DNA of 64,000 nucleotides, from assembly GCF_023055435.1 (NCBI RefSeq), contig NW_025963779.1, positions 30,938,001 to 31,002,000 of the forward strand, read 5' to 3'. The notes beneath the pieces were generated by a model. The model was not told where the DNA came from. It searched no databases and saw nothing but the letters and a program-made list of their open reading frames with translations. Of this stretch, positions 7,919 to 46,103 are shown piece by piece (positions within the stretch are counted from its first letter, which is position 1; each line of letters begins with the position of its first letter). Source of the stretch: Haliotis rufescens. Lineage: Eukaryota. Both the position numbers and the translations under genes were made by a program.

Positions 7919-10900
7919 TTATTGAATGCAAGAAGCTACGTATCCCGTGAGTCCGACAATGGCTTCAAACAGAAGAAAGGACACTAGTAACAGCAGACTG
8001 TACAGGTATATTGAGACATGATGTAGACTCCGGAACTGGAATACTGCAACCGGTTGCCGTAACTTGTTTGCGTTTTCAAAAACCGTTAGGTTAAAGCCAG
8101 ATCTTTGAGACGGGGAGTTATAATCCAGATCCGGAATATGTGACTCTTCCCATGGGAACAGGTAGAACTGGTACCGGTGTATTCCTCTAGGTGGCGCTGG
8201 GGGATGATAATCTGAAAGCGGATCAGTGTATAGATTACAGTATATTCACTAACAACGTCTCGCCTTCAGCGTGACTCCTATATTCGCCGAGAGTCTTTCC
8301 GTATCGTACAAGGTCTATATGAGGAAAATGTGGTATCATGTAAATTTTAATTGGCAAGTATAATAATATTTTCTATTCGTGATATGCAACAATTACGATG
8401 CGGAAACACGGGTAGTAATCTCTTTATGACTTAAATAATCGACGTTGAAGCTAACCCGTGAAGATCCGGGGTAGAATAGGTCTTCAGCAACCCATGCTTG
8501 CCGTAAAAGGCGACTATGCTTGTCGTAAGAGGCGATTAAGGGGATCGGATGGTTGGGCTCGCCCACTTGGTTGATGAATGTCATCGTATCCCATTTGCGT
8601 AGATCGATGCTTATGATATCAATCACTGCATGGATTGTCTGGACCAGACTCGATTATTTATAGACCGCCGTCATACAGCTGGAATATTGCTGAGTACGGC
8701 GTTAAACAACAAACAAACAAACAAACAAACCATAATGTCACTCAGACTTTGTAAATCCAATACAGCAAACAGCCCGATGTAGTGTACATGATTCGAAGCC
8801 ATGGTTGTGTACAGAAACTCACACACATTTAGAACCACCTTCCTTACATAATGGGAAGGGCGGTCGGGTAGCCTAGTGGTTAAAGCGTTCGCTCGTCACG
8901 CCGAAGACCCGGGTTCGATTCCCGACATGGGTACAATGTGTGAAGCCCATTTCTGGTGTCCCCCGCCGTGATATTGCTGGGATATTGCTAAAAGCGGCGT
9001 AAAACCATACTCACTCACTCACTCACTCACATAATGGGAAACGTCAGACAAACGTTTCTTAATCTAAGGAGAGGGGCGGTGGGTCAGCCTTGTGGTTAAA
9101 GCGTTCATGCCGAAGATCCGGGTTCGATTTCCCACATGGGAACAATGTGTGAAGCCCATTTATGGTGTACCCCCACTGATATTGTTGGAATATTGCTAAA
9201 AGCAGCGTAAAACTATACCCACTCACTTCTGCAAGGAGACATTTCATCGATGTATTGAGTTTATTAAAAGTGGTTCCTGCAAGCTAACCTCATCTACATA
9301 TTCATTTGTACGTTTATCTGATTGGTTTATGGCACTAATAACACTATAACTTAATAACAAGTGTCATCTGAAGATGACAAATCCTCCTGGTTCATCTTAA
9401 GCCCCTGGTTTATACAAGTAACAAGTTTGGGTGTAAAATCGTTCACGGTTTTACGGGGGGGGGGGGGGGGGAGGGGGGTAAAAATGTCCATGAACAAATT
9501 ACATTGTTAGCATTTTATATATTGTCGTATTATAAATTATAATCACAGGCGTATGTGTCATTTATCTATATATAATTACAGGGAAACCTCAACTCATAGA
9601 CAAGGGGTTTTGTACATATGTCGAGTAACCTAAAGTTTCAGAAAGGCATATTGCCTATACGTGACCATAGTGTCGATATGATATCTGCCGGGACGATACA
9701 GTTGCATAGTCTTAAACGATATATCGAGACAATGGCGTTCGAGTGAGCGAGTGAGTATGGTTTTACGCCGCTTCACACAATGTTCCTATGTCGGGAATCG
9801 AACCCGGGTCTTCGGCGTGACGAGCGAACGCTTTAACCACTAGTCTACCCGACCGCCCCCAATGGCGTTCGAGTTAACAAGTTTTCACTGTAAGTAAGGA
9901 AGCAAAACTGGACTTACATAAACACATGTTAGTAAATTAAAATAGTGTGTACAAGTCAAACGTTTAGTTGGGTTTTGTGTGGCGGAAGAGTCATTTATGT
10001 TTGGAACGAGGTTTCACTTGAATGAAATCACCACCAGAAGAAAACATTAACCGTTATTTCACGAGCCAGGCAACCGACTTACTGAGCATATTTCTTTCCG
10101 GAACCAATACACCTTTGATCTGCAAAATATGCAAACAACATTTTAAATTATTGATGTTTTACGTGATGAACTATCAAGATATCTACACGAATCGACGGAT
10201 ATTACAGTCGTCATATGTACACCCCATGCTTGCCATAAAAGGCATCTAAGCTTGTCGTAAGAGATCGGGTGGTCAGGCTCGCTGACTTGGTAGATGCATG
10301 TCATCGTATACCAATTGCGTGGATCGATGCTCATGATGTCAGTCACTGAATTGTCTGGTCCAGATTCGATTATTTACAAACTGCACTCATATAGCTGGAA
10401 TATTACTGAGTGCGGCGTTAAACAACACACAAACAAAAAAATGTAAAAAGCGCGAGTTGATTTTCGAGTAAAGGAAGCGGACCTAAATGCCCTTAACATG
10501 GCTTTTCAGAGATCTGATTTTAATGATGAATGCCGCCATAAAATATCTTATTTTCACGCGGAGCGGGAGAGATAAATATCCACTTCATGTCCGACATCAG
10601 GTTTTTGTGTGTGTAAATTCAAATATTCGGTTGTTTTCTGAAGACGTAAGACATATAAGATATAGTGTATAAACTAGGTTGTAATTAGTTAAAAAAAACT
10701 GTCCACCTGAACGTAAGTTTAGGTTAATGGAATAAACAGTCGCTATAAAATGAGATCTTTATTTTGCCCCGATACCTCTCTCGGCCAAATCTCCTTAAAT
10801 ATCAGATTTAAATGTTATTGATCAAATACTTTAAAAAAACATAAAAATAAATAAATTAAAAAAAATAATGATAGTTTAAAAGGAAGATTATGTGAGTGTG

Positions 10901-12604
10901 TAAAGAGCCACCCAAACTGTATATACATGTAGTTGAGTAGAAACCACGTGAATTGCATGATTTGCGACCCCCAGTGGAATAAAAGTTTGCACAGGGCAAT
11001 CAAGCTCCATTCCAGAATAAACCACAGGCCCTTGTTTCGTTGCTGATATATTTCCAGATAAATTAATATCAGAAAAAGATAATTACTAGAGGATCGTGAT
11101 TTTCTGACACAATGACCTGTGAATAAATTGGTCAGCTTAATCCTAAGCAATGCGGTCTGGCGACAGTTTACAATTTGCACATCATTGGCACAAGTCTTAG
11201 GAAACTTACGCCAGTCACAATGACAACGTAATGTAGAATATGCTCCATTGTTACGTCGGGCGGTGCGCAGGGGAAAGGTGCATCAGGGTCAATCATGATC
11301 AACAGGTAAGGCTGGCTCTACAAGGGAAAACCAACAAAGAAAAATGAATGATCGTCTTCTATATGTACAGCTGATTCTAACATTGTTTTAGGCACCGTTT
11401 CAACATTTTTACCAGCAACTTACAAACCTTGTTTTCTGTTTCAGACAGCAATAGGCCATAAACTTAATTTTTGTTTGGTTGTTTTTTCTTTAAAAAAAGT
11501 AAAGTTTTTAAAAGCATTTTTTTCTGAAAGCAGGGACAAATTATATCTGAGATTTGGATACCTGCATGTAATTAAGTATGATGCCAACAAGCTAGCAAGA
11601 AATCCGTGACGATCCGGGTAAGAATAGGCAGGGTATGAAACTCCCAAAAATTTCAGCCAGACTACAGGACTGGCTAGCTGAAATACTTGCCAGCCCTGAC
11701 CAAAACCTGCCTGCCCACTATAATCATATGTTTCTCAGGATAAGCTAACGGGATTTCTTTTTGGTTACCTTTTTATCATTCATCTTTACATGTGAGTTAA
11801 TGATTATCATCGGGAAATATTTAGAATATTGTCACATATGAAATATAACCCGACCGTCGGGCAGGGGGATTTGAAAATCTGGCAGCCCGAGTTGAAATCA
11901 ACCCGTCTCGGACGGTCGGGCAGGCAGGTATTTCGAACACTGGAATAGGCCTTCATGCTTGTCGTAAAAGGTGACTATGCTTGAGGCTCGCTTACTTGAC
12001 TGATGCATGTCATCGTATCCCAGTTGTGTTAATCGATGCTCGTGATGTCAATCACTGGAATTTTGGATATAATATTCCTAACTTGTGATTTGATAATATT
12101 TTCAATAAAAATAAAAAATAAAATGGACTGAGGAGTATAGTTTCTGCTGCTCCTCAGTATATATCTGTTTCATTAAAATGACAATTCTTAGCTTCAATAA
12201 ATTGAATTCTTGGTGAATATCGACGTGCATTAGGATTGAGTCCAAGTTTTAAATACAGACTAAAATGAAAAATGGGCAAAGTGTAAAGCCTAGTATATCT
12301 ACCACGAACACGATAATAATACCTCTTTTGCATCCACGTAGCACACTTCGGGGACGTCCATGGCGTCATCACGAGAAACAACTTCATTACATTGTAGTCT
12401 TCGACCCCCGAACGATACGACCAGTTTTGTAGGGGCGGGAAGATCACATAGCTCGTTATCTTGGAAGCACTGATCCCGGGGGTGAGGCGACACGCTGACA
12501 TTCTGCAGGCACCCTCGGGGTAGGAATAGCGTCAGTATTAGAACACGGAGGAAGCGACACCGAATAGACAGTATCAAGTCCCCAACAGCCAGTCGCGCTA
12601 ACAT
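7919..12604 (-). CDS. PEBP-A: PEBP/RKIP-family protein (~239 aa) with an N-terminal signal-like segment and a C-terminal hydrophobic (TM/GPI-like) tail. Exons 12604-12323, 11317-11210, 10119-10083, 8211-7919
   Basis: Four GT-AG exons with consistent phases (0,0,1) give an open frame: MLARLAVGDLILSIRCRFLRVLILTLFLPRGC...DNELCDLPAPTKLVVSFGGRRLQCN...PEVCYVDAKE / SQPYLLIMIDPDAPFPCAPPDVTMEHILHYVVIVTG / IKGVLVPERNML / NYHPPAPPRGIHRYQFYLFPW...PVAVFQFRSLHHVSIYLYSLLLLVSFLLFEAIVGLTGYVASCIQ*. Contains the PEBP signatures DPDxP and P-x-PP-x-GxHRY. The 37-nt exon 3 is the same size as in paralogs C and D. Confidence 0.88.
8454..8730 (+). mobile_element. SINE family 2, full length (duplicated-hairpin subfamily)
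   Basis: ACCCGTGAAGATCCGGGGTAGAATAGGTCTTCAGCAACCC(ATGCTTGYCGTAARAGGCGAYT)x2 ... (CAAA)n. Confidence 0.88.
8858..9029 (+). mobile_element. tRNA-derived SINE family 1 (~170 bp), full length. Other copies at ~9073, 9745, 14580, 26715, 27535, 53893, 55438, 57214, 62380, 62974
   Basis: A box TAGCCTAGTGG, B box GGTTCGATTCC, GTC anticodon-like loop; tail GATATTGCTGG..AGCGGCGTAAAA(CACT)n; TSD CATAATGGGAA. Confidence 0.9.
11629..11942. mobile_element. Same P-like MITE, copy 2, inserted into a structured-head SINE in PEBP-A intron 1
   Basis: TSD GAATAGG; the insertion splits the SINE head (..gatccgggtaagaatagg | gaataggccttcatgcttgtcg..). Confidence 0.75.
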
Positions 12605-13245
12605 TTGGTAGTGACATGCTAATTGTAAGTGACAAATAAAAGCAAACGCTTTAGTCAAAATTAGTGTCGTTCACGATCAGCCGATTCCTTCCCTGTTCAG
12701 TTACCTCCCTTTGATTATTCACCATTGACTGGTTAAGGGCAGGGGCCAATTGATCTGTGTTATAGGTCTTCCTTTCTGTGCGAGTATGTGGTGACTTTAC
12801 AGGAAGTATGTTCAATGGTCAGGCCCACTATAAAAAAAACCCTGTGTTTACGGAAGCTGACCCCCCGGCGCAAAAACCCTGCGGTGACCCCACGTGGTGA
12901 AACTGACCAAGGGGCTTTGATGAATAGACCAAATAGTCATGTTTGTTACAACTATGACTGTTAAAGACATGTTTGTGGTTTTCAAGGTGGTCCTTTGGTA
13001 TCAGCATTAAGCAGAGCATGAATAATTATTTTTGTCGATGCGTGTTATAGTACGGTAGCAAAAATTAATACGTCGGGGTACACCGAATATTGGCTTCACA
13101 CAGTACCAATGTGGGGGGTCGAACCCCCGACCTTTGCATGACCAGCGAGCGTTTTACCAATGGGTTTAGTGTGGTAGACGTTAATTAGATTTATATGTTC
13201 TATAGCGACGTCTAGACATATATTTTACACGCGAAGGAATACATA

Positions 13246-13417
13246 CAGTAAACTAAGTTTATAACGAACACGCTTATAACGAACTGACGGATATAACGAA
13301 CTTACTTTTTTGTCCCGACTATTTGCTGTAGTTATGCTGTATATAAGCTTATAACTACGGTTATAACGAACTAAAATTAGTGGTCCCTTTGAGTTCGTTA
13401 TAACCGTAGTTTACTGT
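13246..13417. mobile_element. Tc1/mariner (pogo/Tigger-like) MITE; copies at 14892-15057, 15201-15376, 43928-44104
   Basis: TIR CAGTAAACTACGGTTATAACGAAC with TA target duplication; four ~175-bp copies. Confidence 0.8.
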
Positions 13418-16068: not shown

Positions 16069-19000
16069 ATGGATTGTCTGCGGGTGACTATTTTCCTTTC
16101 AACGGGTAAGTCTTCATAGATAGCCAGAACAAGTTCTTAAATCATAATGTAAGACTATTTCTATGTAAAAAACAGGCCTATGTCACCTGGAGCCCGCCAA
16201 AAGTTGAAGATTTCTGCCAGGTGACAAGACGACGAACATATAAGTGTTTTATATATTCCTATTCCGAAAACCATTATGTCTTTGAGGAAGACTGAATGTA
16301 GTTCCAACGTAATGTGCTATTTCACTCGAGTGAAAAAATAATTTAATATTGTATTTCATCAATGAATACATATTATATGTTCTTTTGTAATGTCGTATGA
16401 TATATCGAATGAAAATGAAGTCATTCTGTTCATACATGTTCATACATGTTATACATTTAGTGTTCACTTTGGTTTATATCAGGGAGCACGGGAAGCCAAG
16501 TCGTGTAAGGCGCCGCAATTGGCTGTGCAGAGTTGCGTCCCTTGGAGACGCCAGAAACCTATGGTAATGGGTTCGAATCCCGGTTCGCCCCGATTATGTT
16601 CCTAGGTTTGTCAGCACCATACCTGTGCTCATGGGTTTCACCAAAGTGGTGGACGTCTGAGACCTGCATCACTTTGGGCTTTCCACTCCCATTAAGCTGA
16701 CATACGCCGTGATGTAACTGGAATACTGTTCAAAGCGGCGTTATACCCAACTCACTTACTCACTCGTTTGTATCACTCTAACTTAGCTACTAGTATCTTA
16801 AACAAATCACACATAAGCTTAAACACTAATTTTTCATGTCACACGTTGTTTATATGAGTATGCTAGATAATATTTATGTAATGTTATGATAAACGCATTT
16901 CTTACAAAAATGTCATTTTGTAGTTTGGTACTTTTCTTAATGTTTCTGCGTCAAACGAATCATAATGTATCCTTATATATACAGCATGACATGTTATTGA
17001 TATTGATTGCATATATCATATACCCTCATCTTCACAGCATGACATGTTATTGATGTCAATTATATATATCATATATCTTCATATATACAGCATGACATGT
17101 TATTGATATAATTTTTTAATTTATCGTTTACACGATATGCGGCTTTTCCATTGGACGAGAGATCGGTCACATGACCGCGAAACTGACGTTCATAGGTGTA
17201 TGAACGACACAATTTGACGTTCATACTTTTTTCACGAGGTCGCAAGCTCCGACGTTCATACAGTTTGGCCCTCACTCTATGAAGGTTCATACTCCAATGA
17301 ACTCACACAAAGTGAAGGTCAATTCTTAAATGAATTGCATGTATCATATATCTTCATATGTACAGCATGACGTGTTATTGATGTCAACTGCACATATCAT
17401 ATACCTTCATATGTACAGCATGACGTGTTATTGATGTCAACTGCACATATCATATACCTTCATATGTACAGCATGACGTTACATTAATGTCAACTGCACA
17501 TATCATATACCTTCATATGTACAGCATGACGTTACATTGATGTCAACTGCACATATCTTATACCTTCATATGTACAGCATGACGTTACATTGATGTCAAC
17601 TGCACATATCATATACCTTCATATGTACAGCATGACGTGTTATTAATGTCAATTGCACATCAGTATTCCAGGTATGCAAGGGGGGCAGTACGTCTCTGAC
17701 AGTGAGCAGAACGCCTCAGTACTTCACCTCACCTGCGTACCCCAGCAACTATGGAAGGTAAAAACATTCAACAGTGATTTTTACAAAACTCTAAGCATAG
17801 TTCCAATACTACTCGGTGTGCCTACGTGACGCAGTTGTCTCAGGGCACCACATAGTTGCGTCCCTTATGTGTGTCAGGATCCTAAGACCGTTGTTTCGAA
17901 TCCTAGATTCCTGTTGATTATGATCCTTGGTAACTATATCTGTGTTCTCTGAAAGGGAAACGTCTACCATCTGCACACGATCGGCCTGCACCTCACATTT
18001 CTTTCACTTTCCCAAGACTGTTATGCAAGATGACACAATAGATGATACATGTACGGGTTTTTTACAAATAAGTTTGAAAGGGGGCAATAGCTATTAGATT
18101 AGGCCATATGAAAAAAGACACGCATTATACTACTTATGATATATTATTAAATGTTATATTTCTGTAAGCACTAAAGATATATGTTTCTTATAATTGCAAT
18201 AGATGTTTCGACTTTGCATAAAGATGATATTTACCCCTTGAAGCTTTCAATAGCAATCTCATTATAATGAAATCTAAGTTCTCGAACTTAGATCTGATTT
18301 TAATGAGATTGCTTTCAATAAATGGCTGTGCGCTTTTAATACTTGATATATGAATATGTTTCTTGGCTAACTGTAATACATGATAATGTATTTTCATATT
18401 TTCTTTCAAAAACAAACAGAATTGATAATGCTGTAACATGAAACATATCTTGAAGGTAGTGGTCCAATTGTTGTTCTTGTTCTCTTCAGAAACCATTATT
18501 AACATCACGTTCAATATAAACGTGGAATATACTTTCATTTGAGCTTTCCCATCACGTTATTCAGACACATCGTGATTTGAGTGAAATACTCATTAAAGCG
18601 GTGTTAAACTGTAAATATTTCCATGAAGGTAAACACTTCCCGAATCCGTTTTACGGCGTTCCAGTGAGTGAGTGAGTGAGTTACGTTAAACGTCGCTTTG
18701 AACAGTATTTCTGTTATGATGACGGTGTGACAGCTTGATGTGGGAGGAAAGCCCAATGTGATGCAGGTATTAGGCATTTGCCACTTTGGTGAAACCCACG
18801 AGGACGGGAGTGCTGACAAACATAGAAAACTCAAAAAGGCAATTCAATTGGTCAAGTGAGTGGCAGCAGCAACGAGAAACAGGCCTTAATTTTAGTGCAC
18901 TCTAGAATATTCAGAATATTGTCATGGTTGAATGTTCTGAAAGACCCCTCTCAATTCTTGAATCCAGAAATCGGAAGTCCAGTGTTGGAAGCGGGCAGGG

Positions 19001-22000
19001 TGTGGTTGTTTATAGGCTGGTATCAAAATTGCACTTGGCAAGTAATTTAGAAGCAAATCATGTCGAAAAGCCTACGAATCGCCCCTCTGTCGCTTTTATA
19101 CAGCCAGCCTGCTATTAACTGTCCCATCCAGAAACTTCTAGAAAGTCTGCCGTCTTCATGTTTACAACAAGGGCAGATAACTCTGGAACATTCCACCAGC
19201 TGATGTTGACTGCTGTGACCCATTGATGACCACAGTCATGCAATGTGCCGTGTATTGTTTTCTTCAGTTAAACACTTGACTTGCCTCTGCTTGTGTTTGT
19301 GACAGGCAACACTGCTGGGGCAGGATACGCTTACCTTATCGCGAATACCTGGTATCATCACTATTAGATAGTTGTTTATAAACACATGCTGATAATATAG
19401 TCGTTCAAAGGATTTTGTCGCGTTTATTTAGATATGAAGACGAAAGCTGGTATTTGACGGCGAACGATTCAAGTGACGTCATCACACTTGAGGTCGAGGA
19501 CGCCGACTTAGAGTACTCCAGTACATGTGCGTACGACTACGTCATCCTATTCGACGGTAGGTGACGTCATCTCTGGAATGACCCATGTGCGGTCATTGGG
19601 CTGACTGGGGCCCCAGTGTACCACGCCTGCCGTAAGTGAGTGAATGTTGTTTGACGACGCAATATATGATGGTGGTCTGCCATAAGAGTCGGTTACAATG
19701 TGGATCGGATGGTTTTATGTTTGACCTGCTGGTTGTGTATCGACGTACGTACGCACACAAAGTCGTGTACAGTAGCTCGTTGTCAACTATTGATTTGTCT
19801 CGCATAAACACATTCAAACAGTTTTGTGGTTGAGAAATTTCCAAATCTGACGCATCAGCGAAAAAATTGATACAATATCCTATTTTGACTTGCCTTCAGG
19901 TGCTAATGTTATAGTCAAGATCATACAATGGACTTTACTTTAAGCAGAGATTTCTTCTGGTTATGGAAAAGGTTATTTACGGGTCCAGTGATATAACTGT
20001 AACATATCTGTCGTAAGGTCACATTCAACATTCACTTCTCAATTGTGTTACCCGTGAAGATCCGAGGTAGAACAGATCTTCAGCAACCCTTGCTTGTAGT
20101 AAAGGGCGACTAACGGAATCGGGTGGTCAGGCTCGCTGACTTGCTTGATGCATGTCATCGATCCCAATTGCGTGGACCGATGCTCATGATGTCAATCACT
20201 GGATTGTCTGGTCCAGACTCGATTATTTACAGACCGCCGTCATATTGCTGAGTGCGGCGTTAAACAACAAACAAACCAAACCAAACCTCATTTGTGTTTA
20301 ATGCACAATACAGCCATCAGCGAGTGGAGGTAAGTAGATGTCGCCTTAATAAGACGCACTGTGTGATATTCTAGGGGATGGGCCTGGAAGACGCATTTTG
20401 GGGGGAATCTAACAAAACACATTTCACAACATATTTTTTGTAGGACCAAGCATGTTCTGCGAAAATATAATTTCTACTGATTTTACTAGTTACTTCTGGT
20501 ACACATTACTTTGTAAATAAATCTGGACTGTTAACTCCGACAGTGTCTGTCTTCGCACAACGAAGATGTTACGACGCATGGCTTTTGCGATTATCTGAAA
20601 TGCATCGGGTCTGTTAATTGTTAATTTGGTTGTCAAATTTACATGTGTATATGAATAATCTTGATTTGTTATAACCAAGCTCCTTTTCATTGCTAGACAT
20701 GTACATGAATACTATTACTTTTAGTCGCACTCAAGCGTTGTAAGAAGAAAGGATTGGATATCAATGTCTTTCATTCTTTCAAAGAGGCATCTTTTCAGAA
20801 ACGTGTACATTTATCAAGCGACATCCTAGTGTAGGTGCTGGAACGTCGCACTGAAAGAAGAAAAGTCATTCATGGCTGTATATTATAATGATGGGAATTA
20901 TCATTCTACTGGTGTTTCTTTTCTGCAGGTCCCAGCTCTCTAAGTCCAGTACTCAAGAGGTTTTGCGGCACCAGCGAGCCCACGGTTACCAGTAGTTCCC
21001 AGCACGTGCACGTCAAATTCAACACTGACGGCACCGTGAATAGACGTGGATTCAACATCAGATACTGGAGTGCGTGGTCAAGGTCATTTAGAATCGAATA
21101 AGTGATAGCAAGATTAGCTAGGGGCCTTTTGACAGAATATTTTCAAAAGATACCATTTATTTCTCATAAACGAGGAGCAGATACTTTTCTAGAACCATTT
21201 ACTTACTTTATGAAATTCCCAACTCGTGTTTGAAGAACATCAACAACTTCCAACATTACGTTCGCCATGGATCCTGGGTCTTTCTCACAGACTAAGATGG
21301 TAAACCGAAAAGTGTAAAAATCCAACTCGCTCACCTCACTTGTCCGAAATAACGTTTTGAATGAATTTTAATACATATCCACGTGACTGTCTTTATAAAA
21401 CAAACGGTAACGTAAGCAATTCTAATCATTTACTTAGTTTATTTCTGTCAATGTAAACTATCGATATGCAGCTTATTAACAGGCAATTGTCATCCAGATA
21501 TAATGGTCGTGTTTTTGTGTTTAACGCTGCACTGTGCAATATACCAGCTACAAGACAGCGGCTTTATTAACAGTTGAAACACATGGGTTGTTCGATTACA
21601 CGTTACACCCATGCAAGCAAGCTTTCTTAAGATTCAGCGGAAACCCATGCTTAACAAATTTGCATCTATGTTGTCATTAAGCGACTGCAGATGAGCTTTC
21701 GAATAATTTGAATGTTTCTTGTTTTTTCGCAAGCGTATTTAGAGTAAGCTTTGTTAAAACCATGCTAAGACTACACGATCATGATAATTATGAATAGATA
21801 CAAAAGATAACTGTTTGTTCTCTTTATCAGGCAGTGTCAAACTGACTTCTCCGAGTCCATTCAGTTCTCTTCCGATTCTTATAACCGCCGGAGTCGTAGT
21901 TGGGGCTGTAGTCGTCTTCGGCTTCGTACTCATTTGGTACCACTGTTGCTCCAAGAAACACGGGACGAACAGACAAGTGCGGCCTGCGACTCATGTTTCC

Positions 22001-22195
22001 TGGGACAATACCACGAGGGGGAGGCATCACCCTATGCACTTCCCTTACAACGCACCACGAGGTCAAACGTCCGCTGGCGATTCCATATTTTATAGTAACC
22101 CGAATGAAGCTCTTCCGGGTTATGGCTCACTCTATCCAACGTCTCCACCGCCCCCATACTCAGAGATTGAATTACGGGCGAGTCCAATAAATTGA
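16069..22195 (+). CDS. Single CUB-domain type I transmembrane protein (~253 aa) with a cytoplasmic PPxY motif. Exons 16069-16105, 17664-17757, 19432-19556, 20929-21069, 21831-22195
   Basis: Phase-consistent GT-AG exons encode a signal peptide MDCLRVTIFLSTVFQVCKG; CUB motifs FTSPAYPSNY, W..., DLEYSSTCAYDYVILFDG, RFCG, VHVKFNTDGTVNRRGFNIRY; a TM segment ILITAGVVVGAVVVFGFVLIWY followed by CC and KK; and a tail with LPGY and PPPPY. AATAAA at ~22288. Exon 1 is the least certain. Confidence 0.85.
16481..16764 (+). mobile_element. SINE family 3
   Basis: Full-length copy in CUB gene intron 1. Confidence 0.85.
16975..17660. repeat. 53-bp minisatellite; main array 17340-17660, older units from 16975
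   Basis: Unit GTACAGCATGACGTGTTATTGATGTCAACTGCACATATCATATACCTTCATAT. Confidence 0.9.
20050..20286 (+). mobile_element. SINE family 2, full length (single-hairpin subfamily)
   Basis: TSD CTCA(A/T)TTGTGTT; single hairpin module. Confidence 0.88.
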
Positions 22196-23129
22196 AAAGT
22201 TGAACAAAGTTTACTCATTCCAGAAATTGATGACATTTGGTCAACCATTTGCATTGTGCAATAGTACCAGATGTATGTACTTGTTTTAAATAAATAAAGT
22301 GCTCTAAAATTGTTTCGTGCATAATTAGTTGATGACACTTGAGATCATCGTATTCATTCTTCCCCGTGAGGATTCCTGGTTAGAACTGGTGCCCGCAGAC
22401 CTTAGCTGGTCGTGAGAAGCAACGTTAAGCGTCGTGTGGACAGGGTGGTGACTTTGTCTGTTGCCTGCAGTCGTGGAGCGTTGCTCAAGTAAGAGGCGAC
22501 TAACGGGATCGGGTGGTCAGACTCGCTGACTTGGTTGATGCATGTCATCGTATTCCAATTCGCCGCACTCAGTTATATTCCAGCTATATGACGGCGGTCT
22601 GTAAATATTCGAGTCTGTACCAGACAATCCAGTGGTTGACATCATGAGCATCGATCCACGCAATGGGGATACGATGACATGCATCAACCCTATCCCGTTG
22701 GTTACCTCTTACGACAAGCATGGGTTTCTGAAGACCTATTCTACCCCGGATCTTCACGGGTTTCATTCCCATGACATTTCGATCGTTTCACAAAGCGATC
22801 GTCGTCTTACACATTGCTCCAATGTGTCTGTCAGTGCTCCTATTTCTAAATAGACTTATGATATCCGCTTTTTGAAAAAGACCTAAATCCTTGGTTCAAC
22901 AGACAGACATATGCTGTCATGATATAGCTGGGACATGGAAATATGCCGACCGTGGTGTAAAACAACATTCACATATATTATAGCAAATGTTTAGTATATA
23001 AATATTGACATTGCTAGACTGGTTATAGGCTGTCCTGATATAGCTGTAATATTACTGACTTTCGGAAAACAGCATTGACTTCACCTTCACAAGAGCCCAT
23101 GTTTTAAAATAAAGTTATGTATAATCCTA

Positions 23130-23831
23130 GAGCACCGCCAAGTGTAAATTTATGTTTCTTGCATTTCGCAACACACTATTTAAAACAATTGGACATACCA
23201 CGCCATGCACCTTATAATGTACTTTTACAGATATTTGATCTCAAAATACTACCTGTTCTTCTCTACTGCTCAGAGATATGGGGCTTTCACCCGTCTCAAG
23301 ATGGCATCAATGTACATGATAGATTCTGTAAGAATATTTTACAATATGGGAGATTCGTCCCCAGTGTAGTTGCTCATGGTGAGCTTGGACGTTATTCACT
23401 TAAAGTCAATCAACATGTTCATATTGTCAAATATTGGCTCCGACTTGTTTCTCAAAAAACTAATATAATCCTTAGCCATGCTTATTCATATCAATACAAT
23501 CTGGCAGAAAAAGGAATAAATTGCTTGGCACTAAGAGACTTTGTCCATTTTGTCCAAGACCTGAAGTGGAATCTGAATATCATTTTTGTTTACAATGTCC
23601 ATACTATGACAGTTTGAGACGTAAGGTTCTACCTTATTATTTTTACACAAATGTAACTTTTGATAAATTTGTAACACTCTGTACATCTAAAACCCCATGC
23701 ATAATTAATACTTTAGCTAAATTTATATTTCTTGCTTTTAAAAAGCGTAATAACTTTCTCATTGGCGCTGAAATTGTCTAACTCTGATATCATGTATTGT
23801 ATAATGGGCCGGTGGCCCCTTTACTGAAATA

Positions 23832-23909: not shown

Positions 23910-23913
<4 letters not shown>

Positions 23914-28500: not shown

Positions 28501-29024
28501 TGTCAGCACCATATCCGTGCTGGTAGGTTTCGCCGAAGTGGTAAACGTCTGAGACCTGCTTTCCTTCCACATTAAGCTGACACGCCGCGATATAACTGGA
28601 ATACTGTTAAAAGCGGCGTTAAACCCAACTCACTCACTCACTCAACCACGGTACAGGTTAATGCTTGATCAAGATCTTAAAATCCACATTTAGATTGGAT
28701 CAATATCAATGAAAACATGATGAAATGTTGCATTTCGAATTTGTTGCAATTACTTGCGTGTAAAATTTTAAGAAAGCTCATGGAAAGCATATTAAACAGC
28801 AGTGCACACTAAATCGCAAGAGCTTCTTCGCCTAGCTTTAAAAGAGAGAGCCGAAATCCCCCGCCCCCGAATATCAACTGGTCTGTCCCTAAGTATATAT
28901 TCATCTTACAGGGACAGAACTACCTATTTGTAATGCTGGATCCGGATGTGCCTTCTGGCTGCTCATATCTCCACGCCATTGCGATTGTCGACTTCCAGGT
29001 ACATTTAGGGGGCACTATATATAT

Positions 29025-29102
<78 letters not shown>

Positions 29103-30564
29103 TCGACCCTCGCCCTAAAAAGGACTCAGTCACACCTTCAGGATTTTTACAGTCGTCCTTGATACACCGTTCACGGGTAAAATTAATCAAAAGGGATTCG
29201 TGGCGGGTAATTCACAAACAATCAGATATTGTTCAGGAATCGTCCCGATTGAGCTGTTTCCAGGCGAATTCGTCCCGATTCACCCGTTCTCAATCCGAAT
29301 CTGATCCGATTTCTATCTTCCGCATGGTAAAAAAACGACCGAATCTGTCCCGACAGCTTCCCGATTCTCCCGAATGCAACGGCAAGATCTGGACGTAATC
29401 TGGACTCAATCGACAAGAAACGGTAATGAACCAATTCATGCCCGTTCATCACGACAGCGTCCCGACACCGTCCAGACAACACAGGACATTGTTACGATTT
29501 TGATCCGATACAGCAGAATCTGCCACGACATAGTCACGGTTGTAATCCGACTAGACAAAATCGGCTGAGTTTCCCGAATGTTACGGGACGCACCATACTG
29601 TCGGGAGTGCTTAGCCGAACTCTCTGGACCTCTCCCGATCCGCAGGACTCTGTAACGAACGTATACGACTACGTTCAGACAATGATAGGACATTCCAGAC
29701 CATTCCGCAGATAGTAATCCCACTTTTTCAAATTTCGTGTCGTAGCGTTGTCTGATCTCAAACGGGAGCCATAATCTGCACTGTGTGAACCTGGCCTTAA
29801 CGCCGCACTCAGAATATTCCAGCTATATGACGGCGGTTAGAAAATATCCACATCTGTACATATGGGTAATATAGATCTGCGCATCTGCGATACGATGACA
29901 CATGCATCAACCAAGTCAGCGAGCCTGCAGCTGACCACCCGATGCCGTTAGTCGCCTTTTACGTCAAGCATAGTCGCCTCTCACCACGTGCATGGTTTGC
30001 TGATCATGAAGATTAATTCTAACCCAGATATTCGCGGGATTTAGGTGTCAATAATTATGTCTGGAACGTATACACATTATAAACACGCAGCCACTAAACT
30101 TCAAGTTAAGTTATATAAATGATGAGCTTTTCAGGATTTATATCCGCGTTTAAAAGTGGCATCATGGAAAACGTTCTCTTCGAAATAAACACCATTTAAG
30201 ATTTGAAATACTACAGTTTATTAGTATGAAAAATAGTGCGTAAACAATTTTCCCATGGCAATATATGTCTTGTTAAATGTTCAATTAATAGTCCTGCATG
30301 GTAACATGGAATGCATTATATCCGGGTAATATTATGGAATTCTTGCAGAATGGTCAACTGGCGTTCCAGAAACGCCTGGTGGATTATATACAGCCATCGC
30401 CACCAAGCGGCACACACCGATACCAGATGTACTTGTACACGTGGCCGAGTGTTGACGACAGCGTCGTGTACGAGCGCCTACCCTTCGACGTTGCTAAATT
30501 AGAGGAAGACAACAACCTCAACGAACCGGTAGCCCTGTTCCAGTTTCGTGTTTCCAGTAACTGA
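25533..30564 (+). CDS. PEBP-B: secreted acidic PEBP-family protein (~177 aa). Exons 25533-25648, 28069-28183, 28912-28998, 30349-30564
   Basis: Signal peptide (..AWCMCVLLMLVTSVIHVSLP) followed by CRVDGDICQR / NSLLKISFPSSSTVRCNELLVRHQTEAMPTVEFAEAER / GQNYLFVMLDPDVPSGCSYLHAIAIVDFQ / NGQLAFQKRLVDYIQPSPPSGTHRYQMYLYTW...NLNEPVALFQFRVSSN*. Canonical splice sites; AATAAA at ~30606. The start could be ATG 25533 or a nearby downstream ATG. Confidence 0.87.
25870..26030. repeat. 23-bp minisatellite (~7 units)
   Basis: GGGTGTTTCAAGGGTCGATCTG(C/T). Confidence 0.9.
27005..27149. repeat. 72-bp tandem duplication
   Basis: ATAATGTCAGGAGAACTTCCGCGTGTCGA...CCCTAAGTCGTT occurs twice. Confidence 0.85.
27767..28013 (-). 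mobile_element. SINE family 2, full length
   Basis: TSD GCATAAAGAGG; 5' end GACCCGTG on the minus strand. Confidence 0.88.
28374..28643 (+). mobile_element. SINE family 3
   Basis: TSD CAACCACGGTA. Confidence 0.85.
29029..29098. repeat. (GA)n microsatellite
   Basis: Seen directly in the sequence. Confidence 0.95.
29121..29797. mobile_element. Non-autonomous DNA transposon (PIF/Harbinger-like TIR) in PEBP-B intron 3
   Basis: GGACTCAGTCACACC..GATT at the left end and AATCTGCACTGTGTGAACCTGGCC at the right end form imperfect TIRs; GC-richer interior. Confidence 0.5.
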
Positions 30565-37326: not shown

Positions 37327-37701
37327 ATGTACGCAACAGGACTTCTTGTCGTCTGCTTCCTGCAGCTAGTTGGCGGGTCGGACGCCCATCGTAAAGTTGA
37401 CAATACCCTCTGCACCAAACGATCCCCTCCCAAGTTGGGCATTTACTACTCCGGGCACAAGCTTGCTTGTAACGCTCGTCTACATATCGGAGACGTTTCC
37501 AAGGTGCCACGTATAAAGTTCAAGCAGGGAAGGAAAGTGAGTATTTATCTAATGAACTACCATACAAAAATATGCCATGGACACGTGTGGGTGAATGAAT
37601 TTTGTTTTTTAACGCTGTAGTGGTTGTATTTCAATATTGCTCCCGTTTCGTTTTGATCGATTTCACTTGGCAACCATTATTTCTGTGAGAATGTTTCTTA
37701 T

Positions 37702-37745
<44 letters not shown>

Positions 37746-40712
37746 AAGCCTCATTCAAGATTTGATCCTAACCAAACCACATGAAGCGTCCTAAAATCTC
37801 CTTCTAGACCCAGTCTAGACTTGACACTGAGATATTCCCATTATCATTTAGTCTGTGTTTGTTTGTTGGTTGGTCAACCCCGCAAATTTCTTTTAAAATA
37901 ATTAAAAATCAATGCTTCAGACATTTACAAAAAGGAAATTGCCTACCACAAAAATCGCATAAAAAATATCTGCTTTTGTAGCTGTAGAGAATATCAAATG
38001 GCCATTGTCGGTTCCAAACGACGATGTAAAACCCTACTCACTCCGTTTTCCTCTACATGGCATAGTTATTTTCCTTTTGGGTAAGATCATGTCCCTGTGC
38101 TAAACATACCTAGGGGTCATAATTTGAATGAATTTAAGGAGTGAACACTGAACTCGGATGATCATGTTACGGGTAGGGGAACATAGACTCGCGCACAGCC
38201 ATGACGTCACACCTAATACCCCTCGAGGCACGTCGACAACTAAAAATCCTGAAAACGTAAATCCATTAGCAACATGTTGGTCAAATAGTTTGGTTACAAT
38301 ACGTGAACGTCACACACTCATGGCAGCGGTAGTGTAAGTAATGGTGTTGGTTAACTGTGTTCATATTGTCTTGTATTCTAACTAAACGCACCATATGAGA
38401 GAATTGACACTTTCATGAATATGTTTGTTGTCAGGGGAGACGTTACGTCCTTGTGTTCGTTGACCCAGATGCTCCCCACCCGGGCGCCAAATCCCACGAT
38501 AGCAACTACCTCCACTACGCCGCTGTGGTTAAAAAGGTAAGTAGAAGTTTGTTTTTAGACATCTCGTTAAAATTTGGCACAGTGAAATAAAAAAAAAATG
38601 AATTCAAGGACCTGTATACCGTTTTTTCGTTATTGAAATAGGTAACCGTGTTGAAAAAAATCAATTTGTGAAGAAACTCCACTGCAACAAGTGACTTTGA
38701 CTCATAGCTGCCTTGGGCTTCATGGTGTATGTTAAGTACAATTTCCAATAAAGGGTGTGCTTTTACTTCTGATTAGGAATTTTTTAAACGTTCGTCCTTA
38801 ACCAAGGCGTGACGATTCTCTCCTCTCCTCCATGGCAATCTAGATCTGTTGCTGCAGCATCCGAGTGTCATACTACGTCTGTGTAATGTTATGTATGACC
38901 ATGAATGCAGACTAACAGACGATAGTAACTAGTAGTTGAGATTTTATCCACGCTTCACTTAATTGTTTTCAGAGGAATGGCGAATTGAAGCCTTCGAAAG
39001 TACTAGTTCGTAAGTATTAATGAGATATATACTAGTATACATATTGCTTTAATATCGCCCATGAATGGATCTGCTCAGCGTGCGCTCGAATTTAATTCTC
39101 AACCTCATGGGGAAAATACAACCAATGGGGGCACGGGTGGCCCTGTCTTCAAAGGCACCGCAATTCGCTGTGCAGAGTTGCGTCGCTTGGGCACGCCAGA
39201 AACCTGAAATTGTTTGTTCCCGTTTCGACCCGATTATGTTTCTAGGTTTGTCGGCACCGTACCTGTGCTCGCGGGTTTCGGTAGCGTGGTAAATGTCTGA
39301 GACCTGCATCACTTAGGGCTTTCTTCCTACATTAAGCAGTAGCCCTGTGGACCCGTGAAGATTCCGGGGTAGAATAGGTCTTCAGCAACCCATGCTTGCC
39401 GTAAAATGCGACTTTGCTTGTTGTAAAAGGCGACTAACGGGATCGGGTGGTCAGGCTCGCTGACTTGGTTGATGCATGTCATCGATCCCAAATGCGTGGA
39501 TCGATGCTCGTAATGTCAATCACTGGATTGTCTGGTCCAGACTCGATTATTTACAGACCGCCGTCATATAGCTGGAATATTGCTGAGTGCGGCGTTAAAC
39601 AACAAACAAACCAAACCAAACAAACAGTAGCCCTGTGACATGACGGGGCCGGATTACTGTTAAAAGCGGCGTTAAATCCAACTCACTCGCTCAACACCAA
39701 ATCTGCCTTATGAGGCGCTAGATGGTTAACAGTCACCATTTCAGCATGAACAGAGGCATATTTCGTGCAAAGATGCGCATTTAACTATCAACAGTGATAA
39801 TTGCATTTTATCCTACTTAAAAGAAGTGAAGGACCACCCGATATTTTCATGACGGATTAATCACAGTAATATGAAATAATCGGGTGGCCTTAACTTCTTT
39901 TGACTGGTATATATAATAATGAACATAAGCGTGTGTATCGCGCACTTGTTGTCAAATGTTATAAAGACGTGTTGTTATTATCTTCCCGAGGCAAGGGCGT
40001 TAACTGTCTATAAAAGACCAGTTTCCACCCTTTCCGAACTAGGCTGGAATTTCCTGGCTCGATCGTAGCACTACAAGTGGCTCTTACGAGTGATGTCCCT
40101 TCCATGTCGATCATATTGACCAATCAGATTTCAAATTGCTTCAAACAAAAAGGCAGCGCCCTGTCAAGACCATCAGATCTAGAGTCAAGATCTATCTAGA
40201 AATAAAACGGGTCTTACCTCGCGGAGTGCATCAGATAACTTGAGCACCTTGATTTGCCAAATATCTGTCGACACCCAGTTGGCGGTTCACATGCTTTGCA
40301 AATCCTTCAACCGACAGAAATCTATGTTGTTTACGAACCGGATGTCTAGTTCTTTTACGCGGTTTTGATTGGACTATACATAGTCAAGTTAAAGTGTAAC
40401 TCCGGAACTCCAGCCTAGTTCGGCAAGGGTGGACTTGTATAGTCAGTTAAAGCCCTTGCCTCGGGAAGATGGTTGATATGCTTGTAACTGAAATACAATA
40501 TTTGTGTCGCACATCTAGATTACCGTGGCCCACATCCACCAAAAGGCACACACCGGTACCAGTTTTATGTATTTCGCTGGAAATCCTGCAAGAAACCAGT
40601 GCTCCACAATTCGGACAAGTCGAGAGGCCACTTCAATTTGAAGCGGTTCAAGAAGGAAAACCATTTGAAAAAACCGGTTGCGGTGTTTCAGCTGAAGGTC
40701 CCGCACACTTAA
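37327..40712 (+). CDS. PEBP-C: secreted, highly cationic PEBP-family protein (~180 aa). Exons 37327-37536, 38435-38536, 38973-39009, 40519-40712
   Basis: MYATGLLVVCFLQLVGGSDA-HRKVDNTLCTKRSPPKL... / GRRYVLVFVDPDAPHPGAKSHDSNYLHYAAVVKK / RNGELKPSKVLV / HYRGPHPPKGTHRYQFYVFRW...PVAVFQLKVPHT*. GT-AG introns; AATAAA at ~40759. An in-frame upstream ATG exists at 37270. Confidence 0.9.
39350..39624 (+). mobile_element. SINE family 2 (~250-280 bp, non-tRNA structured 5' head), full length, nested in a family 3 SINE. About 25 copies or fragments in the window
   Basis: 13-bp TSD CAGTAGCCCTGTG; begins GACCCGTGAAGAT and ends GCGGCGTTAAA(CAAA)n; no A/B boxes. Confidence 0.9.
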
Positions 40713-42166: not shown

Positions 42167-42277
42167 GGTTTAGTTGGGAGAGCGGAAGGTCGGTGGTTCG
42201 ATTCCCTGTCCGCGTCATACAAAAAGACGTTACCCTGCCTGGCTCTCGGCATTGAGGAGATAAAAGAAGTACAGGTT

Positions 42278-42416
42278 TGTAAAATGGACAATACCCTCTG
42301 CACCAACCGATCCCCTCCCAAGTTGGGCATTCACTACTCCGGTCACAAGATCAACGCTACACTCGTCTCCGTATCGGAGATGTGCCACGTATAAAGTTCA
42401 AGCAAGGGAGGAAAGG
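42278..42416 (+). pseudogene. Degenerate orphan copy of PEBP-C/D exon 1
   Basis: CKMDNTLCTNRSPPKLGIHYSGHK is nearly identical to PEBP-C exon 1. It is followed by deletions and a frameshift (..tcggagatgtgccacgtataaagttcaagcaagggagg), lacks the signal peptide and has an altered donor site. Confidence 0.8.
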
Positions 42417-43513
42417 AAGTATTTTTAACCCCATGAACCCCATGTTTTGTTTGTTTGTTTGTTTGTTTGTTGTTTAACGCCGCACCCAGCAATATTCCAA
42501 TGTAGACGGCGGTCTGTAAATGATCGAGTCTGGACCAGAAATTCCAGTGATTGGTATCATGAGCATCGATCCAGGCAAATGGGATACGATGACATGCATC
42601 AACCTTGTCAGCGAGCCTGACCAACCGGTCCCGTTAGCCGCTTCTAACGGAAAACATGGATTGGTGATGACCTATTCTAAGGAGGAGTTTAGTTACCAAG
42701 TTAAACTTAATGATGTATTACGGAAAATGCCTCAGGTGAAAGAAACCGCAATCTTTTTAACACGTCGTGCACAATCATCACGTGCAGCACGTGGACCTAT
42801 TACGTCATAACTTCGCCAACACCCGGTGAAGACCCTGGCAGTTTGATCTTGAGAACGAAAAATTGAGGCAAGTTGTCACATTTGATAATTGTGAAAAAAA
42901 TCAGAAAATGTTCTGACATAAAATAGGAATATCGTATATTTGTTATTCATATGTGTGTCCTCATTACTTCAGGCACTGCGCTGATCCAGAAGGGGGTGTA
43001 CGCACCCCACACGTTGAAGCATAGTTTGTTTGTTTGTTGTTTAACGCGGCACTCGGCTATTCGACGGATGTCTGGCCCAGACAATCCAGTGATTGATATC
43101 ATGAGCATCGATCCCCACTACTGGGATACGATAGCATGCAAGTGCTAAGTCAGCGAGACGGAGCACCCAATCTCATTACTCGTCTCTTACGACAAGCGTA
43201 GTCGCCATTTACGGCAAGCATGGCTTGCTGAAAGAGTATTGTAACCCGGATCTTCACGGATTCCTTGAAGCATAGTCATTGTATGAAAAATCGGTGATTG
43301 TTTAACGAATGTACGTACAATACATAAGTGAATAAGAAAATTATCCGATTTTGAAGCTAATACAAATTGGTGAAAACGACAGCTGACGTGAATAATTACT
43401 TAATATAAGTTATATTTATGAATACGTCCGAAGTCGCTCCTTTTCCTGATACTGATAAGAAATCTACCTCAACAGATAAAGTCCACGTGGGAACATTGTC
43501 CTGGGCTTCCAAT

Positions 43514-46103
43514 ATGTACGCGACAGGACTTCTTGTCGTCTGCTTCCTGCAGCTGCTTGACGGGTCGGAAGGCCTCATCGCGGACTGTAACGTTGACAAT
43601 ATCCTCTGCACAAACCCATCACCCCCCAAGTTGGATGTTTACTACTCCGGGCAGCAGATCGCATGTAACACTCTTCTGCATATCGGAGACGTTACCAGTG
43701 TGCCACGTATAGAGTTCAAACAAGGGAGGGAAGTGAGTATTGACCTTTTGATCTACCATGTGAATCACTGTTGGATTTGTATGCTGTTGTCGGTTATATT
43801 TTAATATGGCTCCCAGATTAAAGGGTATCTGACACATGAGGCAATAACGATTACAACGGTGCACGTGTAGTGATTTGACTTGGCAATTAATATTTCTTTG
43901 TGAAAATTTTGTGGTATTTAACACATACAGTAAAGTACGGTTATAACGAACTCAAAGGGACTACTTATTTTAGTTCGTTATAACCGTAGTTCGTTATAAG
44001 CATATATACAGTATAATAACAGCTAATAGTCGGGACCCAAAAAGTAAGTTCGTTATATCCGTCAGTTCGTTATAAGCGTGTTCGTTATAACCGTAGTTTA
44101 CTGTACTTGATGTGATCCTAACCATACCGCATTCCACACAATTGGGATACAAAGAAATGCTGTCAAACAAGTCACCGAGCCTGACCACCTGATCCATTCA
44201 GTCGGCTCTTACGATAAGCATGGGTTGCTACAGTTCTATTCTAACCGGGATCTTCAAGGCCAGACAAGCATAGGTTGCTGGGGACCTATATTGTCACCCG
44301 GGATCCTCACGGGGTTGGTCAGCACCTTATCGGAACCAAACCACATTTATTCGGCCCCCACCCCACCTTTATGTATTTACGTGCTTTATGTATCCGTTTG
44401 TTGTCAGGGTGAAAGTTACGTCCTTGTGTTCGCGGACCCAGATGCTCCCTACCCGTGCGCCAGCTCCGACGGCAGCAACTACCTCCACTACGCCGCTGTC
44501 GTTAAACAGGTAAGTGAAAGTTTCTTCTTTGATAGGCATTTAGAAGTTGGACTACTAAGTAAGGATAAGATTTATGGATGAACAACTTCTTTATTACAAT
44601 TAAGAGCAACGTTTCGGTGTAGGTTACTAAGTGGAAGTTTGTTTTACACCTCACATGTCAGTTACGCAATAATATAAGGTTTATGAATTCGTAGTCCGTA
44701 ATATCTTTACTGAAATCAAATAGATAAACCTCACTCCGACAGATGAATATGGCTCCTATTTGCTTTGGTTACAAACTTTACTACAAAATTGAAGAATTTA
44801 AGTTAGGCGATTTTATACACGTTCGTTCTTGACCATGCACAGTGTTTCTCGTATATTATCTCCTCCATGGACGTCTATGCCTGTAGTATCTGGATGTGAA
44901 AATGCGTCTGTGTAATATTTACAAAGACTTTGAATGCAGCCCAGCAGTATCTGATTTGTTTGTTTATTTGTTGTTTAACGCCGCATTAAGCAATATTCCA
45001 GCTATATGACGGCGGTCTGTAAATAATCGACAATCCTGTGATTGACCTCATGAGCATACGATGACATGCATCAACCAAGTCAGCTAGCCTGACCACCCGA
45101 TCCCTTTAGTCGCTTCTTATGACAAGCATAGTCGCCTTTTATAGCAAGCAGTTGAGTTGCTGAAGATCTATTCTACCCCGGATCTTCACGGGTCAAGTAT
45201 CTGGTAACCAGAAGTTGAAAAATTAATCCACATTTCACTTATTATGTTTCGCAGACGAATGGCGTTTTGAAGCCGTCGCAAGAACTCGTTCGTAAGTATT
45301 TTTGAAACCTATATACGTATCGCTCTACTAATAACAGTAATAATAATAATGATTGTTTTTAATGCCAGATCCGCCCTTTAAAACGTGCACAAAACTCTAC
45401 ATTATCGCACGGGTCTATGGATCACCGCGCGTTTTAATTTAATTCTCAGCCTCCTTGAGAATATACAACCAAACCTGCCGTATGAGGCGCCAGAATGTTA
45501 ATAGTCACGTTACCATAAATATCATCATGAACAAAGGCAGAGGTTTGTTTGACACCGCACTCGACAATATTCCTATATAGACGGTAAATAATCGAGTCTG
45601 GACCAGAGATCCCAGCGATTGATACCATGAGCTTGGGATACGATGACATGCATCAACCAAGTCAGCGAGCCTGACCAACCGATCCTGTTAGTCGCCTCTT
45701 ACGACAAGCATAGTCGCCTCTTACGGCATGCATGGGTTGCTGAAGAACTGTTCTACTCCGGATATTCAGGAGTCGAACAGAAATTTGAAGTAGGAAGGTT
45801 ATATATATACACATGTGATTAATTGATGTTTATACAAGGTAATGTTCACACAAGACATAAAGTATAATAGCCTGATTGATGTACAGAAATATTTTTGTTG
45901 CACATCCAGATTACCGTGGCCCACATCCACCAAGAGGCACACACCGGTACCAGTTTTATGTCTTTCGCTGGACATCCAATCAGAGACCGGTGCTCCACAA
46001 CTCGGACCGATCGAGAGGCCACTTCCAACTAAACCGGTTCAAGACGGACAACCATTTGAATGAACCGGTTGCGGTGTTTCAGGTGAAGGTCCCGCATACT
46101 TAA
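43514..46103 (+). CDS. PEBP-D: secreted PEBP-family protein (~183 aa), recent paralog of PEBP-C. Exons 43514-43732, 44408-44509, 45255-45291, 45910-46103
   Basis: MYATGLLVVCFLQLLDGSEG-LIADCNVDNILCTNPSPPKL... / GESYVLVFADPDAPYPCASSDGSNYLHYAAVVKQ / TNGVLKPSQELV / HYRGPHPPRGTHRYQFYVFRW...VFQVKVPHT*. Exons 2-4 are the same sizes as in PEBP-C (102/37/194 nt). Confidence 0.9.
43928..44104. mobile_element. Same Tigger-like MITE, in PEBP-D intron 1
   Basis: TA-CAGTAAAGTACGGTTATAACG ... CGTTATAACCGTAGTTTACTG-TA. Confidence 0.8.

Follow-up and report, generated by a model that had tools for sequence, protein, structure and literature searches.

A tandem cluster of PEBP4-type genes with predicted differences in anchoring and charge in Haliotis rufescens

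We analyzed a 64,000-nucleotide stretch of the Haliotis rufescens genome (RefSeq assembly GCF_023055435.1, contig NW_025963779.1, positions 30,938,001 to 31,002,000, forward strand; hereafter the window), which contains a cluster of PEBP genes. Four of these (A to D) are intact, a fifth survives as a dead partial exon, and a gene for a protein with a CUB domain, a transmembrane segment and PPxY-type motifs lies between A and B. We have little doubt about their identity and history: they are tandem genes of the PEBP4 type and belong to a gastropod subclade. The original prediction, made from the DNA alone, had described them as extracellular PEBPs diversified in charge and anchoring, which our analysis supports as a prediction. 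The tandem expansion is real, annotated and apparently unstudied. The genes are, in window coordinates:

12604-7919, minus strand: PEBP A gene, 239 amino acids
16069-22195, plus strand: CUB gene, 253 amino acids
25533-30564, plus strand: PEBP B gene, 177 amino acids
37327-40712, plus strand: PEBP C gene, 180 amino acids
43514-46103, plus strand: PEBP D gene, 183 amino acids

Assignment to the PEBP4 group

Reading both strands of the window for open reading frames with GT-AG introns gave these four PEBP genes and one CUB-transmembrane gene. All five models are identical to Haliotis rufescens RefSeq proteins (P0011 for A, P0020, P0006, P0007, and P0135 for the CUB protein), so annotations already exist: 'PEBP4-like' for B and C, plant names for A and D, and 'neuropilin-2-like' for the CUB gene. 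Gene models, frames and splice sites bear out both the four intact genes with a pseudo-exon and the 253-residue CUB protein that had been proposed.

All four PEBPs exceed the gathering score of the Pfam family PBP (PF01161), with 38.9, 37.6, 50.2 and 49.2 bits against a cut-off of 24. The DPDxP motif, the histidine and the GxHRY motif are present in each, as described earlier, and the five near-invariant polar residues that define the PEBP pocket (PMC10848944; here and below, papers are cited from the passages covered), located in DPDxP..H and GxHR, are retained in 11/11 Haliotis rows of our alignment, yet the paralogs share 33-39% identity. The invariance of these residues across very divergent paralogs would fit a role outside cells as enzymes acting on, or carriers of, small anionic metabolites, with the pocket as active site, and a metabolic role for PEBPs has been proposed (Tsoy and Mushegian 2022, cited in PMC10848944). 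The literature passages covered report no such PEBP activity, however, and this role alone would leave the directional charge gain of C (see below) unexplained; we regard it as improbable.

AlphaFold2 models cover D and A, with a mean predicted local distance difference test score (pLDDT) of 88.7 and 83.0, respectively. Both show the PEBP fold, with Z-scores of 17-18 to solved PEBPs, among which there was no PEBP4-type chain. Compared to human PEBP1, the D model gave a Z-score of 17.4 (root mean square deviation 2.6, 152 aligned residues) and the A model 17.8 (2.8, 156); in the Atlas, the best match for A was PEBP4 (0.92). The structural matches include the yeast carboxypeptidase Y inhibitor (Z-score 16.5), and among PEBPs there are inhibitors of thrombin, chymotrypsin and neuropsin (PMC5361777), which would be in agreement with secreted inhibitors of serine proteases or carboxypeptidases (MEROPS I51) whose charge is fitted to different target proteases. 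The yeast inhibitor is, however, no nearer than other PEBPs, and inhibition by a PEBP4-type protein does not appear in the literature passages covered, making this explanation quite unlikely.

B, C and D have signal peptide features by rule of thumb (12-17 uncharged residues and (-3,-1) sites; SignalP was not used), in agreement with the hydrophobic leaders reported for all four proteins; by the same rule, that of A is weak. A pair of N-terminal cysteines, a criterion derived from this same alignment rather than from a paper, occurs in 10/10 full-length Haliotis rows and in 19/19 non-abalone animal sequences, which were hand-picked after viewing the matches of a profile search. This search yielded 234 matches, and many secreted PEBP4-type proteins were among the best 120 of the 234. 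Of the cysteines noted as extra, those of the C mature chain are down to three, one pair being gone.

As previously stated, B, C and D stop after the last β-strand: the D model ends in a strand at 174-181 of 183 residues, and B and C share this alignment end. The PEBP1-type C-terminal gating helix with its W/Y-D-D-Y-V motif is absent from 4/4 window PEBPs. An end no more than 10 residues past the glutamine of the last strand is also found in 15/19 non-abalone rows and, by a simple motif count, in 13/20 named vertebrate PEBP4 proteins. The leader, the cysteine pair and the helix-less end are thus general in PEBP4, i.e. they are the subfamily's own traits and not special to abalones. Human PEBP4 likewise has a signal peptide and is detected in body fluids (PMC9369291). 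Entry of the window products into the secretory pathway, their disulfides and the transmembrane helix of A are predicted.

The PEBP4 proteins with which the window genes share leader, two N-terminal cysteines, pocket residues, early end and tree position come from vertebrates and from Mytilus, Ostrea, Octopus, Capitella, Penaeus and Amphiura. The window genes differ from these in forming a tandem of four, in having a plain hairpin after the pocket histidine, where other PEBP4s have a longer loop, and in carrying a cysteine in the loop after DPDxP; further differences are the predicted transmembrane helix of A and the net charge of +28 in C. Human PEBP4 is a glycoprotein (PMC6755245), but B, C and D have no N-glycosylation sequon.

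Phylogeny and history

A 59-row tree was built on a manual selection among some 270 retrieved proteins; a second tree had 25 rows. In both, the PEBP1 type was represented by arthropod and unnamed helix-bearing domains, without vertebrate PEBP1, A5 or OV-16. In these phylogenies, an analysis which the original prediction had suggested, the window genes share a group with PEBP4 of vertebrates and secreted proteins of invertebrates, with supports of 99/94 (59 rows) and 99/97 (25 rows). A group of the gastropod genes and the PEBP1-type rows was rejected by the approximately unbiased test (p-AU 0.035, 25 rows). The relationship to PEBP1/RKIP, a cytosolic protein, is one of fold and pocket: the window genes are without its gating-helix motif and do not group with the helix-bearing rows.

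The gastropod subclade that holds the window genes has supports of 92/91 (59 rows) and 99/97 (25 rows), and its other members are from Gigantopelta (three), Pomacea, Littorina, Batillaria and Lymnaea. In this subclade, the loop after the pocket histidine has become a hairpin and a cysteine is often added after DPDxP. The three Gigantopelta paralogs lie on one chromosome-length record and one of them is basic, with 22 lysines and arginines to 9 aspartates and glutamates (22/9). What sets the window genes apart is the hydrophobic C-terminal tail of A, found in 0/7 of these relatives, and the charge of C, matched by 0/5 of those counted.

An earlier tree without most other gastropod rows had placed the abalone genes in one clade (98/91). 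After the other gastropod rows were added, the approximately unbiased test on this question gave a p-AU of 0.38 (25 rows), and the lineages of A, B and D may predate abalones. Counterparts of B and D were found in H. cracherodii, H. rubra and H. asinina, of A in H. rubra, and of C in H. cracherodii only; a word-index search, which missed A itself, did not find an A ortholog in H. cracherodii or H. asinina or a CUB ortholog in H. rubra. C nests within D in the 59-row tree and, judged by sequence, is a recent duplicate of D.

The cluster had been described as a lineage-specific toolkit. Given the gastropod-wide subclade and the acidic and basic members elsewhere in the family, this holds only in part: leader, cysteine pair and helix-less end are PEBP4-wide, whereas the C/D split is limited to a few abalones. 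Beyond the family traits, the window genes show the predicted A helix, the gastropod hairpin, often with an extra cysteine, and a charge gain in C accompanied by the loss of a cysteine pair.

PEBP A and its C-terminal helix

The hydrophobic C-terminal tail previously noted in A appears in the AlphaFold2 model as a 29-residue helix (210-238) directly after the last strand. Residues 47-210 of the model align to PEBP1 residues 9-179, whereas the alignment of D stops at PEBP1 residue 174; the A helix therefore begins at the position of the PEBP1 C-terminal helix, which gates the pocket (PMC10848944). It is hydrophobic, and its sequence is unlike that of the gating helix. The tail is identical to that of the H. 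rubra ortholog in 29/36 positions (core 92/102), and the H. rubra tail terminates in basic residues. From the model we infer that the tail would be a transmembrane anchor holding the pocket near the membrane. Anchoring through glycosylphosphatidylinositol (GPI) was rejected by rule of thumb (NetGPI was not used), as neither A nor its H. rubra ortholog has a small omega/omega+2 site.

Other anchored PEBPs, namely an Asterias OV-16-like protein (P0052), an Ornithodoros D1-like protein (P0106) and two unnamed proteins (P0166, P0241), resemble A in having a leader, a PEBP domain and a hydrophobic C-terminus. Yet 3/4 have a GPI omega-type site, again by rule of thumb, and 3/4 a long stalk, neither of which is found in A, where the helix directly follows the last strand. 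Their positions elsewhere in the tree make repeated origins of anchoring likely.

The leader of A may be uncleaved and possibly an anchor itself. The hydrophobic tail has a glutamate at mid-length (Glu225), which is retained in H. rubra and may mark a membrane partner or an oligomer contact. An out-of-frame ATG at 12617 (minus strand), 13 nucleotides upstream of the A start, begins a reading frame of some 54 codons that overlaps exon 1 and could dampen translation of A.

Charge gain in PEBP C

The counts of basic (K+R) and acidic (D+E) residues in the mature chains that had been made by hand are exact (B 12/19, C 37/8, D 16/14); for A they are 14/22. The net charge of C, +28, is the highest among 98 single-domain matches with at least two N-terminal cysteines, the next being +17; basic members elsewhere in the PEBP4 family include an Amia protein (27/15) and the Gigantopelta paralog.

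C and D are 74% identical, and their main differences are in charge and in one cysteine pair. Relative to four D sequences, the C stem carries 19 changes, 14 towards higher charge and 0 towards lower charge, a bias with p-values of 1e-7 to 1e-3 under four simple nulls, all crude. On the rufescens C tip, 7 of 13 changes raise the charge and 1 lowers it. A/T mutation bias as the source of the C lysines was set aside, having a weak pull at synonymous sites (11 vs 7). Directional selection for charge is likely to have acted on C, as far as the sequences allow this to be judged.

C has lost Cys25 and Cys90 (D numbering), a pair kept in D, A and the C relative of H. cracherodii; their joint loss suggests that they form a bond, and 32-51 would be a second putative pair in D. 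The C exon at 40519-40712 encodes a new cysteine (residue 140) that is probably unpaired, and a different one was gained by the C relative in H. cracherodii; these new cysteines could cross-link the C forms to mucus proteins or form dimers.

The pseudo-exon at 42279-42424 is 81% identical to exon 1 of C and nearer to C than to D. With this sister copy already dead, one cysteine pair lost and branches longer than those of D, C might itself be a redundant duplicate under relaxed selection and heading to loss, its charge being the result of drift. Such a stem, with 14 changes up and 0 down, is hard to reach by drift, however, and C has kept its frame, splice sites and pocket residues; further, the ratio of nonsynonymous to synonymous substitution rates (dN/dS) between C and D is 0.49, indicating constraint. 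We see a very slim chance that C is decaying.

Between H. rufescens and H. cracherodii, C differs at 25/180 positions, D at 5/183 and the CUB protein at 9/253 (C vs D, Fisher p 9e-5). Together with the presence of PEBP4 reported in sperm plasma (PMC9369291), these differences could point to a reproductive role of the same family, in seminal fluid or on the sperm or egg surface, where the charge-directed change of C would reflect gamete-recognition selection. The existence of a third, dead C-type copy means, however, that strict orthology of the two C sequences is uncertain and that their distance is perhaps inflated. We consider a reproductive role unlikely. A precedent for a cationic, fast-evolving protein in abalones is sperm lysin.

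The CUB gene

The CUB protein has a single CUB domain (Pfam, 78.8 bits), followed by a transmembrane segment, a Cys-Cys pair and then LPGY and PPxY motifs. In this arrangement it resembles PY-motif membrane adaptors of the WBP1 and LDLRAD4/PMEPA1 type; a weak match to WBP-1 (E-value 0.036) is below the cut-off. PY motifs recruit Nedd4. Orthologs of the tail were not found outside Haliotis in a weak search.

With the calcium-binding CUB domains of cubilin, neuropilin and PCPE-1 it shares the CUB domain with a tyrosine and three acidic residues: Tyr38, Glu71, Asp79 and Asp119, retained in three species, align with the calcium-site residues of the cubilin and neuropilin domains. It differs from all three in having a single CUB domain without the first disulfide and, contrary to its RefSeq names, is neither a neuropilin nor a BMP1.

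Run X2 holds one contig that joins CUB exon 3 to exon 4 with 0 mismatches and another that enters exon 5 at the acceptor, showing that the gene is spliced. The same run contains 0.68 of the sampled words of the last exon of C, of whose 31-mers 0 of 242 are common to D; none of the runs matching this exon is on record as RNA. CUB and C are likely expressed in this one shared sample. In runs X1, X5 and X8, aligned to 17661-23800, CUB exons 4 and 5 were uncovered, but contigs cannot show absence and these were not used as evidence.

The PEBPs had been proposed to be arranged around a CUB-PPxY receptor. Calcium-binding CUB sites consist of one tyrosine and three acidic residues, and in PCPE-1 such sites hold ligand lysines (PMC6372009), so the calcium-site residues make ligand capture by the CUB protein plausible. 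On this basis, it could be a calcium-dependent endocytic receptor for at least one PEBP, with a ligand lysine bound at its calcium site and the complex passed to lysosomes through Nedd4-type ubiquitination. Further points in favor are the retention of LPxY and PPxY in 3/3 orthologs, the head-to-head arrangement of A and CUB, the consecutive numbering of the CUB, B and D accessions in H. asinina, and the joint presence of spliced CUB contigs and C words in run X2. However, gene order within one genus (the H. cracherodii genes are also on one record) is expected without a functional link, and single-CUB membrane proteins are common in molluscs. Nor does CUB track C: between two species it is 96% identical where C fell to 86%, and it is present in H. 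asinina, where searches found no C. A complex prediction for one of the four pairs, namely residues 21-183 of D and the CUB domain (residues 20-135) in the presence of calcium, in which no alignments were used and controls were not folded, scored 0.00, which gives no verdict.

What stands of the proposal is that the gene is real, linked to the PEBPs within Haliotis and plausibly able to capture ligands; its tie to the PEBPs consists of neighborhood and likely one shared RNA sample. We judge a receptor of this kind very improbable, and most likely the CUB gene is only a neighbor of the PEBPs. As an extension, a ligand-receptor cassette can be envisaged, in which the calcium-binding CUB receptor, through its Nedd4-recruiting motifs, would internalize lysine-rich PEBP4s loaded with microbial or dietary anionic lipids, with membrane-tethered A as co-receptor. 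We give this a faint chance; if true, it would be the first receptor known to us for a secreted PEBP4.

Functional interpretation

For the function of the cluster we lean, tentatively and with somewhat less than even confidence, towards extracellular binders of anions or lipid headgroups that are sorted by anchor and charge, both ligand and role being putative. The four PEBP4-type products, predicted to enter the secretory pathway, would present a conserved and ungated pocket, which on extracellular surfaces likely binds phosphate and other anionic headgroups; anchor or charge would likely decide where each paralog acts. In A, the C-terminal helix would serve as the membrane tether, with the pocket beside the outer leaflet. 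B, which is acidic, and D, which is near neutral, would be soluble, and C would be drawn by its +28 charge to polyanionic surfaces, e.g. microbial envelopes or mucus. The CUB-transmembrane-PPxY protein would be an unrelated surface protein inside the cluster, turned over by Nedd4-type ligases.

A number of points weigh against this interpretation. In the passages covered, the role of PEBP4 secretion is stated as undefined (PMC9369291), and the functional relevance of phosphatidylethanolamine binding as shown for no PEBP (PMC10848944). The PEBP1 type in our trees had the narrow composition given above, the tree backbone within the PEBP4 group lacks resolution, and the composition of C was flagged as atypical in the tree analysis. 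By rule of thumb the leader of A has 8 uncharged residues with no (-3,-1) cleavage site beyond, and the H. rubra model of A is without exon 1. As to the charge of C, the nulls are crude, dN/dS is not above 1, the loss of the cysteine pair also fits relaxed constraint, and on the H. cracherodii C tip 0 of 6 changes raise the charge and 4 lower it (5 ambiguous sites left out).

As biology, this is an ordinary tandem expansion unless a receptor link, a defense role or a gamete role emerges. The same pocket on tethered, acidic, neutral and +28 scaffolds in one genome nevertheless offers a ready comparison for ligand finding, and the C/D pair, whose main contrasts are charge and one cysteine pair, is part of the same natural series. 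Our literature search, thin on subscription journals and without supplements, brought up no study of PEBP4 genes from abalones or other gastropods; in abalone proteome tables the products could go by other names, e.g. 'protein D2-like'.

Gene models and neighboring features

The exons, in window coordinates, are:

12323..12604, minus strand: PEBP A exon 1, leader and N-terminal cysteines; equals P0011 1-94
11210..11317, minus strand: PEBP A exon 2, DPDxP and pocket histidine
10083..10119, minus strand: PEBP A exon 3, 37 nucleotides
7919..8211, minus strand: PEBP A exon 4, GxHRY, last strand, predicted transmembrane helix 210-238 and stop
16069..16105, plus strand: CUB exon 1, leader start; equals P0135 1-12; GT donor from sequence, an alternative boundary 1 base away gives the same protein
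17664..17757, plus strand: CUB exon 2
19432..19556, plus strand: CUB exon 3, calcium-site Glu71 and Asp79; one run X2 contig links it to exon 4
20929..21069, plus strand: CUB exon 4, Asp119
21831..22195, plus strand: CUB exon 5, transmembrane segment, Cys-Cys, LPGY and PPPY motifs and stop
25533..25648, plus strand: PEBP B exon 1, leader
28069..28183, plus strand: PEBP B exon 2
28912..28998, plus strand: PEBP B exon 3, DPDxP, shortened loop and histidine
30349..30564, plus strand: PEBP B exon 4, GxHRY and stop
37327..37536, plus strand: PEBP C exon 1, cationic paralog
38435..38536, plus strand: PEBP C exon 2
38973..39009, plus strand: PEBP C exon 3, 37 nucleotides
40519..40712, plus strand: PEBP C exon 4, GxHRY and stop
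42279..42424, plus strand: dead partial copy of a C-lineage exon 1, leaderless, with frameshifts and a lost donor; the first cysteine codon, lost in C, is retained
43514..43732, plus strand: PEBP D exon 1, near-neutral, ancestral type of the C/D pair
44408..44509, plus strand: PEBP D exon 2
45255..45291, plus strand: PEBP D exon 3, 37 nucleotides
45910..46103, plus strand: PEBP D exon 4, GxHRY and stop

The intron pattern of B is unlike that of A, C and D, with an extra phase-2 intron in the first exon and none before the GxHRY segment; in the H. rubra B isoform P0014, the DPDxP exon is skipped. The start codons of the head-to-head genes A and CUB are about 3.5 kb apart (12604-16069), and shared regulation is possible. 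Two further frames considered as exons, one PEBP-like (near 27380-27510) and one hydrophobic (near 15600-15790), were dropped, as both have in-frame stops and zero tblastn matches; a sensitive tblastn search of the window found no further PEBP remnants at E < 0.1.

Short interspersed repeats are dense throughout the window, several ending in TGAG or AAAC runs, and were covered very deeply in the four sequencing runs aligned. An assembly gap of 142 N lies near 57057-57198. Beyond it, 58506-64000 (plus strand) holds the start of a gene for a type II membrane protein of glycosyltransferase family 10 (fucosyltransferase-like; Pfam E-value 0.005, below the cut-off), in whose stem exon (about 60369-61448) a 78-nucleotide repeat, present 5.6 times, encodes a region rich in Gln, Pro, Asn and Ala.

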